From IMG/VR virus record IMGVR_UViG_3300045988_016855: DNA of 37,207 nt; one strand, written 5' to 3'. Shown in pieces: positions 1 through 37,207 of this stretch. Made by a program: the position numbers and the translations under genes. Position 1 is the first letter of the stretch. Every line of letters starts with the position of its first letter. The DNA comes from a virus. The notes beneath the pieces are model-generated. The model saw only the letters and a program-made list of their open reading frames with translations. It did no database searches and was not told where the DNA came from.

Positions 1-25
1 ATGATATAATCATGGTAGGTGTAAG
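1..25. repeat. Terminal direct repeat copy 1 (ATGATATAATCATGGTAGGTGTAAG), identical to 37183..37207
   Basis: Exact 25/25 identity between the first and last 25 nt, read directly. Consistent with circular-contig overlap or terminal redundancy. Confidence 0.9.
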
Positions 26-104
26 GGGCTTTCGCCCCGACCTACCAGAGCCTTACTTGAACCGCTTTGCTTTGCTCGGCTTGCGTTCTTTTGGCTCTTT
101 TTTT
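17..104 (+). ncRNA. Putative cis-antisense small RNA (type I antitoxin-like), convergent with the 43-aa peptide gene
   Basis: An extended -10 (TGaTATAAT) lies inside the terminal repeat at 2-10 / 37184-37192. The stem GGTAGGT/ACCTACC encloses the hairpin GGGGC-TTTC-GCCCC (17-46). A long imperfect hairpin (AGAGCC...GGCTCT) is followed by a 7-T run at 98-104. No good -35 box; ends are inferred. Confidence 0.3.
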
Positions 105-184
105 ATTGCTATGATAACACTTGCGATCCCTGTTAATAAGGTTCCAGTTGCCACCATTAGTTCAGCAATCTCTGATATTTTCAT
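53..184 (-). CDS. 43-aa small membrane peptide MKISEIAELMVATGTLLTGIASVIIAIKKEPKERKPSKAKRFK (type I toxin-like / holin-like toxin-like)
   Basis: Hand-translated; it is below the ORF-track size cutoff. RBS AAAGGAGGA lies 4-5 nt upstream of the ATG. The peptide has one hydrophobic helix and a strongly basic tail, and is driven by a near-consensus promoter. Confidence 0.55.
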   Translation of the reverse strand: MKISEIAELMVATGTLLTGIASVIIAIKKEPKERKPSKAKRFK

Positions 185-205
185 ATCTTCCTCCTTTCTG
201 ATTAT

Positions 206-234
206 ATTATATCACGGTATGCCGTGACTGTCAA
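206..234 (-). promoter_or_regulatory. Near-consensus sigma-A promoter TTGACA-17 nt-TATAAT with TG extension; spacer contains the palindrome TCACGG-N4-CCGTGA (212-227)
   Basis: On the minus strand: TTGACAgtcacggcataccgtgaTATAAT. An A/T-rich UP-like tract lies upstream, and it sits directly upstream of the 43-aa ORF. Confidence 0.6.
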
Positions 235-290
235 CACTTTTTATAAAAATAATTAGAGATTTTTTAATCTGGAACTAGTTTCAGAGCAAA

Positions 291-317
291 ATAAAAAACC
301 CTCCCGAATTGGGAGGG
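291..317 (-). terminator. Rho-independent terminator after the RBP-like gene
   Basis: On the minus strand, CCCTCCC-AATTC-GGGAGGG followed by TTTTTTATTTT, immediately after the stop at 326. Confidence 0.8.
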
Positions 318-325
318 TGTGTGTC

Positions 326-1222
326 TTATGGTAGATTTTCCGGCCACGGTTCGTCTGTCGTGTATGACATAGTGGTAAATCGTAAATCTCCGATGTCTCG
401 GTCGGTAGGCACGGGATCATCAAATTGCAAACGCAAATGATTATAATCACCTTGCCCACCCAGATAAAAAGTTCCCAAACGTTGGCCCTTGTCGTTGGTC
501 ATAATGCCCAGTTTTGAGTTTGTAGAACGAAAACCGACGGGAACACCGCCGTTGCTTAAAATAAACACGTTTCGATCACGGTCTGACCCTTGCGCAACAT
601 AACCCTGTGCGCCTCTACGTTTGATACCAAACCAGCCCCACGATAGACCGCCAAAACTAATTTCTACTGTTGAGTTTATGCGTCTAAATTCTACGTACGC
701 ATTAGGTAGAGTTGAGCTGATATTTTTCGGTTTAAATTTGACATCGCCAAACAAAACAGACCAAGCACCGGAGCCAGTTCCGGGGCCTTTTTTAATCCAT
801 TTAACTGCCCCATTTTTAGCAGTCGTATCGGTATATATCGTACCAATATCTGCATTGAGAGCATACGGGAAACCTTGCCCCTTTAATTCTGTGCTCGCAC
901 TGCCTCCAGTATTGTTGGCTGAAATTTTTCGTTTTAGCTCTTCGAACTCATTTTTGCTGACTAGCTGGCTTGTATCCATTGTAGGTAGCTTGGATGTTGT
1001 GACAAATGGATCACCGCCATTTTGCAACTTAGTGTCAATCAGAGCATCCAAGCCAAGCTCTAAATGTTTGTCTTTTATGTTGCTTGTCATTTGCGCCTGC
1101 AGCGTGGAATAGGTCGGAAAGAGTTCATAGGCCTTTGACTGTGGCAATAAAGACGCTTGTTGACCTTCGATGTTGCCGATATCACGACCGATCTGTTGGA
1201 TCGCTTCTTTTAATTTGTCCAT
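326..1222 (-). CDS. Tail-fibre / receptor-binding-protein-like protein (298 aa)
   Basis: ORF track. N-terminal coiled-coil-like region, then the motif GFPYALNADIGTIYTDTTAKNGAVKWIKKGPGTGSGAW, which I recognise from C-terminal heads of phage fibres. Family assignment is from memory. Confidence 0.5.
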   Translation of the reverse strand: MDKLKEAIQQIGRDIGNIEGQQASLLPQSKAYELFPTYSTLQAQMTSNIKDKHLELGLDALIDTKLQNGGDPFVTTSKLPTMDTSQLVSKNEFEELKRKISANNTGGSASTELKGQGFPYALNADIGTIYTDTTAKNGAVKWIKKGPGTGSGAWSVLFGDVKFKPKNISSTLPNAYVEFRRINSTVEISFGGLSWGWFGIKRRGAQGYVAQGSDRDRNVFILSNGGVPVGFRSTNSKLGIMTNDKGQRLGTFYLGGQGDYNHLRLQFDDPVPTDRDIGDLRFTTMSYTTDEPWPENLP

Positions 1223-1235
1223 CTAGCGCCTCCTT

Positions 1236-1583
1236 TTAGAGACTGTTCTTTGCTGCTGTATAAACCTGTACGAAGTCGGTATTTTCGAGATCCGTGATTT
1301 TTTGGCCAAGTTCAGTCATTTTTGAGACAATAGCCCCATCAGAGCTACTTCCATCAGAGATTTTCTCAGCAATCTCTTTTAATGTATCTAACTCCTCTGG
1401 CACACCTTCACCTAAGATGGATGTTTTGACACCTTGAATTGCAGTGTCCAACTGTTCTTTTGTGATCCCACCTTGGCCGATCTCGCTCTTTTCCGCTTTA
1501 TTCGCAAGTTGTGTCTTGATATCTTTGATATCTGTCCCGACCGCTTGAGCAAAAGATGTTAGTTTCTCTGTATTTAAAGTCAT
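1236..1583 (-). CDS. Tail-fibre shaft-like protein (115 aa from the ATG at 1583)
   Basis: ORF track 1236..1598, trimmed to the Met preceded by AAAGGAAG. The motif PEELDTLKEIAEKI resembles the phage tail-fibre repeat (xLDTLxELAxxl). Confidence 0.5.
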   Translation of the reverse strand: MTLNTEKLTSFAQAVGTDIKDIKTQLANKAEKSEIGQGGITKEQLDTAIQGVKTSILGEGVPEELDTLKEIAEKISDGSSSDGAIVSKMTELGQKITDLENTDFVQVYTAAKNSL

Positions 1584-1594
1584 AATTCTTCCTT

Positions 1595-2062
1595 TCAAAT
1601 TTTAGCTAAATTGTAAAGTGTTGTTAAATCTGGCAATTCTTCTGTGTTTGGCCCATTTGGGTGTGCTGCGATATACTTATCGATTTCTGTTTTAACATCG
1701 TTTTTTACAAGCGATAAGACTTCCTCAGTCGTGAATTCTTCCGCAGATTTCGTAACCTCTAGCCGAGCGCTTCTGTCACTTGGAAAAATGTATCCATCAC
1801 AAACAACTTCAACAAGATATGACCCTATCGGCAATGCCTTTTCGATTTTGAAAGTAACTCTGGACTTATCCACTGTACTCTCAAATGTGGCCTTTCCTTT
1901 TTGATTGAAGATCCTGATTGTAGCATTTTTGCCATTCAGTTCTCTGATCGGTCGCATGTTTTCGTCCAGTAGCTCATAGCCAAAAAGAGAGGCAGAGTCG
2001 CCTTGTTTGACGACAGCCCCTCCTTCAAATTGCTTTAGATTCGTAGAATTTAATAATGTCAT
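1595..2062 (-). CDS. BppU-N-like (baseplate upper protein Ig-like domain) protein, 155 aa
   Basis: ORF track. RBS AAGGAGGA upstream. N-terminal pattern (VKQGDSAS...FPSD) resembles the BppU N-terminal domain. Co-transcribed just after the lysin. Confidence 0.45.
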   Translation of the reverse strand: MTLLNSTNLKQFEGGAVVKQGDSASLFGYELLDENMRPIRELNGKNATIRIFNQKGKATFESTVDKSRVTFKIEKALPIGSYLVEVVCDGYIFPSDRSARLEVTKSAEEFTTEEVLSLVKNDVKTEIDKYIAAHPNGPNTEELPDLTTLYNLAKI

Positions 2063-2077
2063 TAAATCCTCCTTGTT

Positions 2078-2830
2078 TTAAGAGAATGAGCCGAAGTCTG
2101 TAATCCGTTGCCCATTCTCTGATTGACCGACTGCCACATAGCGACGATTACCGGATGCACCGATGTAAGTGATCCAGATATAGCCATCGTTATCTAACCA
2201 GCCGTCGTAATTGATTTCCATTCCAGCAGTATAGACTGCCACAATTTCGCCAGCAAGACCAGCAGAAGACCGTACATTAAGAGCCGATACTTCAACTATG
2301 AATGTACCTGTCTCTGGGTTGAATCCATTAGAGTCAACTGTAAGAGGCTCTGATGGTGTGATAGGCTCTACTTGTGCAGGCTTACCGTCAACTGGGAAAT
2401 AAAACCAGCCAACAATAGCAGTAAAATCACGGGTATTATATCGTGCCGGGCCACCTACATATAGACTATCTTCGTTGCCATCAATATTCTGCTCGATAGT
2501 ACGCATGGTATACCCATCACTATCCTCGATCACTAGACCAGTATGACCGTATGAATGACCGAACAAGTAAGTAGTTTCTTGTACAAACACAGCCCCAGCT
2601 CGTGGTTTGCTGTCCGCATTGCCCTCTTGGTTATATTCCACCTCATAACCTAAATCACGGGCAGAATTGAGTAGATCAATAGCATTGCCCCAGAGAGTTT
2701 TGCCGAAAAAGTAAGTAGAGATTGCATTAGGTAGTGCAGCGCATTGCATCCCCCATTGGCTCATAGATACACCAGTGCCAGCATCTGCTAACCCTTCTGC
2801 ATATCCCAAAATATCATTTAAAGTAGCCAT
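2078..2830 (-). CDS. Endolysin, CHAP amidase/peptidase domain plus C-terminal SH3b (PlySs2-like architecture)
   Basis: ORF track. Catalytic Cys context (QWGMQCAALP) and His (GHTGLV). The C-terminal ALNVRSSAGLAGEIVAVY...GYIWITYIG...RYVAVG is SH3_5-like. Located after the holins. Confidence 0.85.
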   Translation of the reverse strand: MATLNDILGYAEGLADAGTGVSMSQWGMQCAALPNAISTYFFGKTLWGNAIDLLNSARDLGYEVEYNQEGNADSKPRAGAVFVQETTYLFGHSYGHTGLVIEDSDGYTMRTIEQNIDGNEDSLYVGGPARYNTRDFTAIVGWFYFPVDGKPAQVEPITPSEPLTVDSNGFNPETGTFIVEVSALNVRSSAGLAGEIVAVYTAGMEINYDGWLDNDGYIWITYIGASGNRRYVAVGQSENGQRITDFGSFS

Positions 2831-3172: not shown

Positions 3173-3457
3173 TTAATTATTTTTGTTCTGAATTAATGCT
3201 TTAAGCTCCTTCATATCCTCGCTCAAGGCTTTGACCTGCTCTGCGAGGATCAATAGAGACTTATTCTGTTCATCGTGGTTGTCGAGTCGTCTAACAGCCG
3301 TAAGACGGAAATCACGCATGTTTTCGATATCTTTTTCGATCACGACCATGCGTTTCTCTTGTGCCACGACACTTCCTTTAAAATTTCCATATATTCCAAG
3401 TAAGATCCCGACAAATCCGACCATCATCGAGATATCTTCTGGTGTAAAGTGGATCAT
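3173..3457 (-). CDS. Small membrane protein (N-terminal TM plus coiled coil), lysis-module accessory / holin-like
   Basis: ORF track. One TM helix (MMVGFVGILLGIYGNF). Immediately upstream of the holin. Confidence 0.55.
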   Translation of the reverse strand: MIHFTPEDISMMVGFVGILLGIYGNFKGSVVAQEKRMVVIEKDIENMRDFRLTAVRRLDNHDEQNKSLLILAEQVKALSEDMKELKALIQNKNN

Positions 3458-22969: not shown

Positions 22970-23042
22970 TTAGGAGTACAGGATTCGAACCTGTGACACG
23001 AAGATTAAAAATCAACTGCTCTACCAACTGAGCTAACTCCCA
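22970..23042 (-). tRNA. tRNA-like gene, anticodon UUU (Lys) by manual folding, with a mismatched anticodon stem
   Basis: The minus strand reads TGGGAGT-TA-GCTC-AGTTGGTA-GAGC-A-GTTGA-TTTTTAA-TCTTC-GTGTC-ACAGG-TTCGAAT-CCTGT-ACTCCTA-A. D and T arms are canonical. The acceptor stem has one G-U pair. The anticodon stem has two U-U mismatches. No CCA is encoded. A hairpin plus T-run follows. Confidence 0.6.
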
Positions 23043-36578: not shown

Positions 36579-36590
36579 TTAAATAACATA

Positions 36591-36625
36591 AAACAGACCC
36601 TTTGGATAAAAAAGGGTCTGTTTTT
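36591..36625 (+). terminator. Terminator after int
   Basis: AAACAGACCCTT-N8-AAGGGTCTGTTT followed by a T-run. Confidence 0.7.
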
Positions 36626-36632
36626 GGGTCTG
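36614..36632. repeat. GGGTCTGTTTTTGGGTCTG, copy 1 (candidate integrase arm-type sites)
   Basis: An exact 19-bp copy recurs at 36786-36804. An inverted GGGTCTG lies at 36594-36600. Confidence 0.6.
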
Positions 36633-36674: not shown

Positions 36675-36700
36675 AAAAAACGTTGTTTTTACAACGTTTT
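36675..36700. terminator. Bidirectional hairpin AAAACGTTGT-TTT-ACAACGTTTT
   Basis: Perfect inverted repeat flanked by A and T runs. On the minus strand it lies just downstream of the tRNA/tmRNA-3'-end-like core. Confidence 0.55.
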
Positions 36701-36732: not shown

Positions 36733-36749
36733 TGGAGCCGGTGGGAGTC
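36733..36749 (-). other. Candidate attP core: the minus strand GACTCCCACCGGCTCCA resembles the T-arm/acceptor 3' end of a tRNA or tmRNA gene
   Basis: It parses as T-loop end (GACT), T-stem CCCAC, acceptor CGGCTCC and discriminator A. It is flanked by the GGGTCTG repeat pairs, by TAGAAAGT repeats (36662, 36702, 36720) and by TTCAAAAAGG x2 (36638-36657). Confidence 0.45.
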
Positions 36750-36785: not shown

Positions 36786-36804
36786 GGGTCTGTTTTTGGG
36801 TCTG
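36786..36804. repeat. GGGTCTGTTTTTGGGTCTG, copy 2 (candidate integrase arm-type sites)
   Basis: Exact match to 36614-36632. Confidence 0.6.
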
Positions 36805-36844: not shown

Positions 36845-36890
36845 TTTCTATTATAATAGACAATTTTTCGAATGTCTATTATAACAGACA
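36845..36890 (-). promoter_or_regulatory. Two near-perfect 18-bp palindromes (TtTCTATTATAATAGACA at 36845-62, TGTCTATTATAAcAGACA at 36873-90) that together form a minus-strand promoter TAGACA-17 nt-TATAAT
   Basis: The minus strand reads TAGACAttcgaaaaattgtctatTATAAT. The -35 (36873-78) lies in palindrome 2 and the -10 (36850-55) in palindrome 1. It points toward the candidate attP core. Confidence 0.5.
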
Positions 36891-36902
36891 AAATTGGAAA
36901 AT

Positions 36903-37085
36903 TTATTTTATTTTTAATTCTTCCGCAAAATCATATAATTTTTCAGCTGTAAGTAGGGCCATTTTATCCATACTAGTTTTTCCTTTTCTAAGGTCAGATA
37001 CTGTAGACCAAGGGACGCCTGCGCCTTTGGCAATTGCGCTTGTGCTTATCTCGCTGTTTAATAAGTTTTCTATTTGTTCTCTCAT
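36903..37085 (-). CDS. Small HTH DNA-binding protein (60 aa)
   Basis: ORF track. ISTSAIAKGAGVPWSTVSDLRKG is HTH-like. AAGAGGG RBS. Confidence 0.6.
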   Translation of the reverse strand: MREQIENLLNSEISTSAIAKGAGVPWSTVSDLRKGKTSMDKMALLTAEKLYDFAEELKIK

Positions 37086-37182
37086 TTAATAACCCTCTTA
37101 TTTCCGTCTATCTTTTAAAATCAGCAGAAATATAAAAAATACGATTGTGAAGATTGGTAAATATTTCATTTTATTGACCGAT

Positions 37183-37207
37183 ATGATATAATCATGGTAG
37201 GTGTAAG
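37183..37207. repeat. Terminal direct repeat copy 2, identical to 1..25
   Basis: Exact identity, read directly. Confidence 0.9.

Follow-up and report, generated by a model that had tools for sequence, protein, structure and literature searches.

A candidate type I toxin–antitoxin-like cassette with a predicted Aca-type autorepressor gene at the genome junction of a temperate Streptococcus phage

The viral record IMGVR_UViG_3300045988_016855, a stretch of 37,207 nucleotides (nt) referred to here as the window, opens with a short segment that had been read from its letters alone as a type I toxin locus: a strong promoter, a membrane peptide of 43 amino acids (aa) and a convergent antisense RNA. 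This raises the question of whether the segment belongs to a toxin–antitoxin module or to another kind of phage operon. In about 80 homologous loci, the segment is part of a larger cassette, a minus-strand operon that crosses the window junction and consists of a promoter (P1), the gene of the 43-aa peptide (peptide 1), a GC hairpin, a second peptide gene (peptide 2) and a gene for a small helix-turn-helix (HTH) protein (gene 3). On the basis of sequence comparison, we consider with moderate confidence that this cassette is a new type I toxin–antitoxin-like module to which an autorepressor of the anti-CRISPR-associated (Aca) type has been added. This reading is favoured because the cassette combines a strong, presumably autorepressed promoter, a messenger RNA (mRNA) predicted to be locked, a predicted convergent antisense RNA, a single-pass polybasic peptide and a location at the prophage end.

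All features listed in the original prediction were found at the positions given for them. The first and last 25 nt of the window are identical, and the sequence is therefore circular, with a 25-bp terminal overlap. The window is the circularly permuted genome of a temperate Streptococcus phage, whose nearest relatives are prophages of S. parasanguinis with approx. 80% identity. Homologous loci are contiguous over the junction and carry exactly the junction sequence, which indicates that the cassette is intact in the circular or integrated genome. This bears out the proviso of the original prediction that the locus would be intact only if the sequence is circular.

The two peptide genes

Homologues were collected by BLASTN against phage records, by two protein word searches and by a profile search of 1.84 billion representatives, complemented by pattern-based locus retrieval and by contig look-ups for distant members. 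The resulting loci (approx. 80, individually cited by L numbers) stem from prophages of the S. parasanguinis group, the anginosus group, S. agalactiae (group B streptococcus, GBS), S. bovimastitidis and S. pluranimalium, and from metagenomes. Their layout is kept down to 35% peptide identity. The profile search returned 32 representatives of peptide 1 at the 50% level, and one match of 523 aa was spurious. The representative relatives contain 33–91 aa, mostly 33–50 aa, and the few longest ones are frameshifted or N-terminally extended.

Peptide 1 is assigned to phrog_3399, a family without assigned function (E 2e-8 to 5e-20). It contains a single transmembrane helix followed by a Lys/Arg-rich tail; the family shares invariant G14 and G19 residues and a basic tail. 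Between lineages, the ratio of nonsynonymous to synonymous differences (pN/pS) for codons 1–31 is 0.07–0.47 at a pS of 0.4–0.8. Peptide 1 thus has the hallmarks of a type I toxin at the sequence level, i.e., a hydrophobic single-helix peptide of less than 60 aa with a charged tail that evolves under purifying selection. Homologues of peptide 2 contain 21–23 aa, are conserved and hydrophobic, and are also present in the distant loci L081–L087. The peptide 2 frame is the sole open frame in every lineage, with pN/pS values of mostly 0.24–0.69, and locus L078 encodes the conserved MKYL sequence with different codons (atgaagtactta). The purifying pN/pS values, the peptide 2 frame as the sole open one and the recoding of MKYL together indicate that both peptides are products of real genes. 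The strong ribosome-binding site and the 43-aa open reading frame (ORF) with hydrophobic helix and basic tail are as originally described, but the view of a single-peptide locus is too narrow, because it missed the operon context provided by peptide 2 and the gene for the putative Aca-like HTH autorepressor.

A 71-aa ORF of the plus strand (12..227) was considered and rejected, because it is interrupted in four distant lineages and the minus-strand frame is the one under purifying selection. In the GBS phage LF1 (L002 2452-2736, AYJ74886.1), a 94-aa ORF is annotated opposite to peptide 1, which is probably a mis-annotation. The peptide genes carry no annotation in most Javan and GBS records, and a full-text literature search for the peptide sequences gave no match.

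A predicted convergent antisense RNA and a covarying helix over the start codon

Directly after the GC hairpin, all streptococcal prophage copies contain the sequence ATTATATCATATC (AGTATATCATATC in GBS). Read on the opposite strand, this element is GATATGATATA(A/C)T, a perfect Gram-positive extended -10 promoter (TRTGnTATAAT). The 13-mer is invariant in about 70 loci, except for the exchange between TATAAT and TATACT. Amid diverged flanking sequences, 12 of 13 lineages, distant ones included, have retained TGnTATA(A/C)T, and only the fifth position of the hexamer varies. In the window, TRTGnTATAAT occurs only twice over both strands (2 x 37 kb). A sense promoter for peptide 2 within the same 13-mer was considered as well and rejected by direct reading, because the TATCAT of this strand has neither a usable -35 element nor a TG.

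The position of the -10 element and the fold predict a cis-antisense RNA of approx. 90 nt that is complementary to the 3' untranslated region (UTR) and the last 18 codons of peptide 1. Taken with the conservation and covariation described below, such an RNA is very likely. The predicted 91-nt RNA folds with -31.3 kcal/mol (z = -3.3; z = -4.9 for the GBS homologue), and 8 of 11 lineages yield predicted RNAs of 85–92 nt that are built in the same way. The rarity of the promoter motif, the fold energy and the recurrence of the layout in distant lineages speak against a chance arrangement. The 5' domain of these RNAs is the GC hairpin; their second domain is a long, irregular hairpin with a basal stem immediately in front of the U-run.

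The GC hairpin is nested, shows a GAAA loop on the sense strand and has a covarying outer stem. On average, it is more stable on the sense strand than on the antisense strand, while GBS variants favour the antisense strand, and the strand which it serves is ambiguous. In L082, the hairpin is followed by a T-run and constitutes a true sense terminator, and the Javan73 copy was scored as terminator-like; the hairpin may act as a leaky sense terminator in some lineages.

The basal stem of the second domain forms between GGCTC (93-97), located in front of the T-run, and positions 47-52. It is built from the codons just after the Lys-Lys codons and from the nucleotides just past the stop codon. Over the lineages it occurs in five sequence forms, always abutting the U-run: AGAGCC/GGCUCU, AGAACC/GGUUCU, AGCCU/AGGCU, AGAACAGC/GCUGUUCU (in L081 AGAACAAUC/GGUUGUUCU) and AGCUA/UAGCU. 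In the alignment, 93.8% of the cells are paired, four pairs are changed on both sides and none of 500 shuffles reaches the observed covariation score; this alignment was anchored by hand and therefore leans towards structure. Such shuffle statistics also overstate the significance, because related sequences share ancestry. Of 28 variants compared, 26 have a 3' domain that is more stable as antisense than as sense RNA. Furthermore, GCAATAAAAAAAGA is invariant at synonymous sites in all lineages retrieved by pattern, including the rare Ile codon ATA, which is exactly what a U-rich terminator tail on the opposite strand would require. The extended -10 in the 25-bp terminal repeat, the nested GC hairpin and the 7-T terminator that had been proposed for an RNA of this size are all present; the promoter is near-invariant across lineages and the terminator stem covaries.

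On the sense strand, the same 13 nt contain the 3' strand of a helix. In the minimum free energy fold of the sense RNA, GAUAUGA (187..181), which includes the AUG of peptide 1, pairs with the element after the hairpin. In 13 lineages, the three positions 5' of the AUG change together with their partners, giving the pairs GAU/AUC, GGU/ACC, GGU/AUC (with one G-U pair), GUU/AAU, GAC/GUC and AAC/GUU, and in a high-GC relative the +4 position and its partner are both changed (A:U to G:C). For this lock helix, 95.6% of the cells are paired, all four variable pairs are changed on both sides and none of 500 shuffles reaches the observed covariation score, compared with 11–54% pairing in slid controls. 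In partition function calculations, the pairing probability reaches 0.89 or more for 10 of 12 lineages; the window has a value of 0.5 and L070 one of 0.15. The presumed toxin mRNA thus has a fold that occludes the translation start, as in the hok/aapA1 type. This helix was absent from the original prediction and adds weight to its type I reading.

The shared use of 13 nt also provides an argument for a different reading, in which the cassette is a type II-like module: the product of the third gene would be the antitoxin, acting by direct binding or by repression of P1, the antisense promoter would be non-functional and the 13-mer would only be a helix strand. The helix does explain UCAU and the next three bases. 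The TATA(A/C)T hexamer, however, is explained by the promoter alone, and neither its invariance at exactly 1 nt from the TG in 12 of 13 lineages nor the covarying stem that always abuts the antisense U-run is accounted for by the helix. Furthermore, the promoterless remnants L006 and L009 have kept antisense promoter, hairpin and terminator intact. In favour of the type II-like reading, the third slot is always occupied by a small DNA-binding protein (HTH, ribbon-helix-helix (RHH) or MerR/Xis-like) or by PanA, and the promoter palindromes co-vary with the third gene, but a 60-aa protein that consists only of an HTH domain is unlikely to neutralise a membrane peptide directly. A type II-like module is therefore regarded as quite improbable.

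For the type I-like reading, the closest described architecture is yonT-yoyJ/SR6 of SPbeta, in which two toxins are encoded on a polycistronic mRNA and a 100-nt RNA covers the 3' end of the first gene (PMC5848175). The geometry matches that of the 3'-overlapping antitoxins RatA, SR4 and SR5, as had been proposed, and that of SR6 as well; promoter and terminator of a cis-antisense RNA over the presumed toxin mRNA are conserved at the level of sequence. Like yonT-yoyJ/SR6, bsrG/SR4, bsrE/SR5 and txpA/RatA of B. subtilis, the cassette is prophage-borne, has a strong promoter for the presumed toxin mRNA and is presumed to act via RNase III cleavage of the 3' duplex. A second small gene downstream on a polycistronic mRNA is shared with yonT/SR6 (PMC5848175). 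Unlike the B. subtilis systems, the cassette encodes a peptide without similarity to TxpA or to Pfam toxins, its operon ends in a dedicated (predicted) autorepressor gene and its 5'-3' helix sequesters the start codon instead of the Shine-Dalgarno sequence; its antisense promoter is located between the two peptide genes, without reaching into peptide 2. The RNA also differs in having no Rfam match: covariance models gave nothing over the cassette, either at E<=5 in three homologous loci or at gathering score in the window.

The hok mRNA is closed by pairing between its 5' and 3' ends (fbi/tac). Likewise, the full-length aapA1 toxin mRNA is closed by pairing between start region and 3' end and cannot be translated (PMC5416894). 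The cassette resembles hok/sok and aapA1/IsoA1 in that the translation start is hidden by pairing with a 3' element, and its helix covaries. In these two systems, the target of the antisense RNA is the 5' region of the active, processed mRNA, whereas the predicted antisense RNA of the cassette overlaps the 3' third. Organisms and peptides are unrelated, and sequence analysis provided no evidence for 3' processing of the cassette mRNA as in hok/aapA1.

The putative regulator and the competing readings

The near-perfect sigma-A promoter with TG and palindromic spacer, which had been the starting point of the original prediction, was found again as P1. It scores 12/12, carries the TG in addition and is the only such site within 1..1500; a consensus or near-consensus P1 is kept in all lineages. 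Its spacer palindrome TCACGG-N4-CCGTGA is present as a single exact copy in the window, where no further operator copies that would indicate a wider regulon were found. Among about 30 loci that encode this HTH protein, both arms are kept and the central four bases vary; the sole exception is L005, in which one arm differs by a single base. Where the third gene is another one, a different palindrome occupies the same place (AGTACATGTACT in GBS, TATATAACATATGTTATATA in L011, TATAGTATATATACTATA in L070, GCACGTGC in L085 and GTGTTCCA..TGGAACAC in L083). L021, whose HTH gene is truncated, has lost the palindrome as well.

Two observations concern the surroundings of promoter and regulator gene. In L021 (2781-3170), the truncated HTH gene is followed by small acidic ORFs that are new and have a promoter of their own. 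The distant lineages L078, L081, L082, L083 and L085 share a hairpin (gtaagg...ccttac) in the 5' UTR, located between P1 and the Shine-Dalgarno sequence; it is conserved among them and missing in the lineage of the window, where the leader comprises only about 20 nt.

Residues 1–58 of the gene 3 protein align with the N-terminal domain of the anti-CRISPR (Acr) protein AcrIIA15 (PDB 8jfr_B, E 3.7e-10), and gene 3 encodes a stand-alone homologue of the Aca-like autorepressor domain of AcrIIA13-15. In AcrIIA15, this domain dimerises and represses its own TTGACA-N17-TATAAT promoter via inverted repeats, one of which is located between -35 and -10 (PMC7104187, PMC10901769). The base-contacting residues S25, Q26 and K31 of the AcrIIA15 domain are replaced by P, W and D in the gene 3 protein, suggesting a different DNA specificity that fits the different operator.

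The homology of gene 3 is an argument for the main rival, in which the cassette is an early or accessory operon under Aca control and no toxin–antitoxin module. Its peptides would be non-lethal effectors, e.g., in superinfection exclusion, anti-defence or membrane-level modification of the host; they would be produced in a burst upon entry and then shut off by the HTH protein, while antisense RNA and mRNA fold would merely trim the dose. As in the acr-aca operons of AcrIIA13-15 (PDB 8JFR, 8JFO), the cassette has a TTGACA-N17-TATAAT promoter with an inverted repeat between -35 and -10 and a predicted autorepressing regulator as the last gene, homologous to a characterised autorepressor (layout in PMC7104187, PMC10901769). 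The cassette is also found in a variable accessory region beside attR, or beside paratox in GBS, and relatives such as L027 fuse the HTH to an acidic C-terminal domain. On the other hand, the cassette HTH is a stand-alone protein of 60 aa without the inhibitor domain of AcrIIA13-15, and the cargo consists of two membrane peptides instead of a soluble Cas inhibitor. Known Acr proteins are soluble, and the peptides showed no similarity to known Acr or defence-related models. The same peptide core is, moreover, paired with RHH, XRE and PanA partners that are typical of toxin–antitoxin modules, and three stacked layers of repression are generally typical of toxic peptides. To our knowledge, no acr operon contains an antisense RNA or an mRNA lock. 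An Aca-controlled effector operon is accordingly considered unlikely.

In L027, the gene 3 product comprises 122 aa, and its additional acidic C-terminal domain has no match among PDB sequences. Such HTH relatives may be Acr–Aca fusions of the AcrIIA13-15 type.

The occupants of the third slot include the phrog_1529 HTH protein, phrog_2277, RHH proteins, an XRE HTH protein, a MerR/Xis-like protein and, once, a Panacea (PanA) antitoxin. The latter is encoded in the distant locus L082, a single metagenomic contig of 1.1 kb, in which the two peptides are followed by a protein with the Panacea domain PF13274, as in PanA–PanT. PanA neutralises small toxins that depolarise membranes (PMC8832971). 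Together with the layered repression, this neighbour hints indirectly at a toxic peptide. The domain is absent from the window, where no Panacea gene is adjacent and gene 3 encodes only an HTH, and from all streptococcal prophage copies.

Several points weigh against the type I-like reading. An operon with an Aca-like or RHH repressor fits anti-defence and type II toxin–antitoxin operons too. Part of the conservation of the antisense promoter has a second explanation, because the helix also needs the 'TG' and the 'CAU', and two of the covariation alignments were anchored by hand. The loop of the antisense terminator is unusually large (approx. 40 nt) and a simple terminator scan gives no call. 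Pairing of the antisense RNA beside the lock helix could open the helix rather than reinforce it. Searches of peptides 1 and 2 and of 29 family members against Pfam and NCBIfam, and with PADLOC, gave nothing meaningful, including for Fst and Ldr. Finally, the A7 run that encodes the Lys-Lys codons (complement of window 98-104) is prone to frameshifts: A6 or A8 replaces A7 in approx. 13 of the 29 clusters formed at 90% identity and in several isolate-derived loci, and L071 and L072 are among the frameshifted sequences. These frameshifts swap the basic tail for another sequence that is often still basic, and their frequency suggests that the exact tail is dispensable; they could reflect phase variation, relaxed constraint on the tail or attenuation of a toxin. 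A broken ORF in related phages had been named as an outcome that would speak against the peptide; it is seen for the basic tail, which is often frameshifted, while the membrane helix is always intact and the transmembrane part is never disrupted.

The proposed resemblance of peptide 1 to TxpA, BsrG, BsrE and the 'holin-like toxin' peptides was not borne out by homology, and membership in the TxpA/Hol-Tox family was rejected. None of the 29 family members matches PF16935 at E<=10, although TxpA itself carries this domain, and hhalign gives a probability of 0.8% versus TxpA; a search of the family profile against PDB sequences also gave no match. The type I-like locus as first proposed therefore stands with respect to the conserved gene, the antisense promoter, the covarying terminator and the 3' overlap, but not with respect to homology with a known toxin family.

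The same data bear on the idea that the peptides are lysis accessories, i.e., holin-like or antiholin peptides ('holtox') of the TxpA/Hol-Tox family. For GBS prophages, Wiafe-Kwakye et al. 2024 reported a 'holtox' gene that carries PF16935 and is oriented divergently from prx; no function, RNA or regulation is given for it (PMC11357604). The GBS homologue of peptide 1 is located at the same place, is likewise divergent from prx and is a small single-pass peptide. In Javan73, the cassette directly follows the lysin gene. However, the published PF16935 assignment could not be reproduced for the peptide family by hidden Markov model search or hhalign, peptides 1 and 2 have no holin match, and the window already contains a holin gene upstream of the endolysin gene, where Javan370 has two. 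In GBS prophages, the cassette is inverted relative to the lysin gene and has its own promoter and terminator. A role in lysis is thus highly improbable. Fozo et al. 2010 reportedly list a 'TxpA-like' entry for S. agalactiae 2603V/R; the entry may be a different, chromosomal gene of a holin-like toxin, e.g., GBS_RS11205 of NEM316.

In the type I-like reading, the consensus sigma-A promoter P1 would transcribe peptide 1, peptide 2 and the small HTH protein, a dimer of which would bind to the spacer palindrome and shut off its own operon, as suggested by the co-variation of operator and regulator and by the homology with AcrIIA15. In the transcript, GAUAUGA at the start region pairs with UCAUAUC past the 3' hairpin, as covariation and folding show, and this would produce a closed, poorly translated mRNA. 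The constitutive extended -10 on the opposite strand, which overlaps the 3' element, would produce the approx. 90-nt RNA, to which conservation of the promoter and covariation of the terminator point. Over the 3' UTR and the last 18 codons of peptide 1, this RNA would anneal to the mRNA in a duplex of approx. 90 bp, and RNase III cleavage or translational silencing would follow. Peptide 1, and perhaps peptide 2, would span the membrane once with a polybasic cytoplasmic tail and, on escape from this control, would presumably be toxic by damaging or depolarising the membrane. Escape could occur upon prophage loss or when transcription is shut off during superinfection.

The interleaving of lock and antisense promoter also allows a more unusual reading, which is doubtful: a hybrid circuit that has not been described before, in which an Aca-type autorepressor, a start-codon lock and a cis-antisense RNA, the latter two sharing 13 nt, jointly gate two membrane peptides. 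Whether the lock or the antisense RNA is formed would then depend on which strand is transcribed, an idea that is equally tentative. It is likewise rather unlikely that the cassette is neither classical type I nor type II and delivers an 'entry-burst / loss-of-repression' effector for superinfection exclusion, abortive infection or anti-defence.

If the type I-like reading is correct, the cassettes represent a new family of type I toxins that is widespread among the prophages of oral, pyogenic and group B streptococci. Most of the peptide genes in public records carry no annotation or one on the wrong strand. The cassettes adjoin paratox and the attachment site, where lysogenic-conversion genes are found, and might play a part in prophage maintenance, in abortive infection or in membrane damage under stress in lysogenic streptococci. 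The reading also specifies concrete RNA elements, namely a transcription start close to position 17, a terminator with a U7 tract and a start-codon lock of 7 bp for which natural compensatory variants exist. In addition, the AcrIIA13-15 autorepressor domain would control cargo other than anti-CRISPRs, which bears on Aca-based guilt-by-association searches for anti-defence genes.

Feature coordinates and the phage surroundings

Table 1. Positions of cassette features and of neighbouring genes in the window (37,207 nt; the cassette crosses the junction between the last and the first position).
Feature	Position	Strand	Sequence or remark
Promoter P1	206..234	-	TTGACA (234..229), 17-nt spacer, TATAAT (211..206), TG 214..213
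Operator palindrome	212..227		TCACGG-N4-CCGTGA; within P1 spacer; presumed binding site of the HTH protein
Shine-Dalgarno of peptide 1	190..197	-	AAAGGAGG; direct reading, conserved in alignment
Peptide 1 ORF, 43 aa	53..184	-	MKISEIAELMVATGTLLTGIASVIIAIKKEPKERKPSKAKRFK; phrog_3399; presumed toxin
Lock helix, 5' strand	181..187	-	GAUAUGA, with AUG of peptide 1
Lock helix, 3' strand	37186..37180	-	UCAUAUC; within the antisense-promoter 13-mer
Antisense promoter	37180..37192	+	GATATGATATAAT (TRTGnTATAAT); -10 at 37187-37192 = 5-10
Extended -10	2-10 = 37184-37192	+	TGATATAAT
Predicted cis-antisense RNA, approx. 90 nt	17..107	+	presumed antitoxin; from -10 position and fold
Nested GC hairpin	outer 14-20/40-46, inner 25-29/34-38		3' UTR of peptide 1 and 5' end of antisense RNA
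Antisense 3' domain	47..98	+	basal stem AGAGCC (47-52)/GGCUCU (93-98) enclosing irregular hairpin
U7 tract of predicted antisense terminator	98..104	+	sense strand: A7 of Lys-Lys codons
Peptide 2, 23 aa	37098..37169	-	MKYLPIFTIVFFIFLLILKDRRK; hydrophobic, charged end, no Shine-Dalgarno
Gene 3, 60-aa HTH protein	36903..37085	-	with Shine-Dalgarno; phrog_1529, E 1.5e-25
Intrinsic terminator of gene 326..1222	298..318	-	8-bp stem with 6 GC pairs, then TTTTTATTTT
Gene adjacent upstream of cassette	326..1222		fibre-like, function not assigned; after endolysin gene
Endolysin gene	2078..2830		upstream of cassette
Holin gene	3173..3457		upstream of endolysin gene

The late genes of the window are located on the minus strand, and the integrase gene and an attP-like region occupy 35.5–36.85 kb. 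The cassette had been placed downstream of the terminator of the last structural gene. The terminator exists (Table 1) and insulates the cassette from late transcription, but the designation 'last structural gene' does not hold clearly, because the adjacent gene follows the endolysin gene and is fibre-like without assigned function. At the corresponding position, the related phage Javan370 contains a different gene; two holins are annotated upstream of its lysin gene. Together with the inverted orientation beside paratox in GBS prophages, this indicates that the cassette is an accessory ('moron') element of its own.

Three fibre- or neck-like genes (phrog_6487, phrog_4757 and phrog_21909; window 326-2062, minus strand) are located downstream, not upstream, of the endolysin gene, and Javan370 shows the same order. 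On the minus strand, two copies of TCTATTATAA(T/C)AGACAA (window 36847-36891 and 36850-36878) together form a promoter-like site, TAGACA-17-TATAAT (11/12), which is located directly past the HTH gene and points into the attP region. Terminator-like hairpins are present at 36700..36677 and 36624..36590. The direct repeat GGGTCTGTTTTTGGGTCTG occurs twice (36614-36632 and 36786-36804) and may be an integrase arm site, while 36733-36749 is the reverse complement of GACTCCCACCGGCTCCA, which resembles the 3' end of a transfer RNA (tRNA) gene and may be the attP core. The phage also encodes a tRNA gene at 22970-23042 on the minus strand (Rfam RF00005, 61 bits). In the GBS phage LF1, a copy of the S. 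pyogenes small RNA family Spy779816 is located beside the integrase gene (L002 678-761, minus strand; Rfam RF02589, 76.9 bits).

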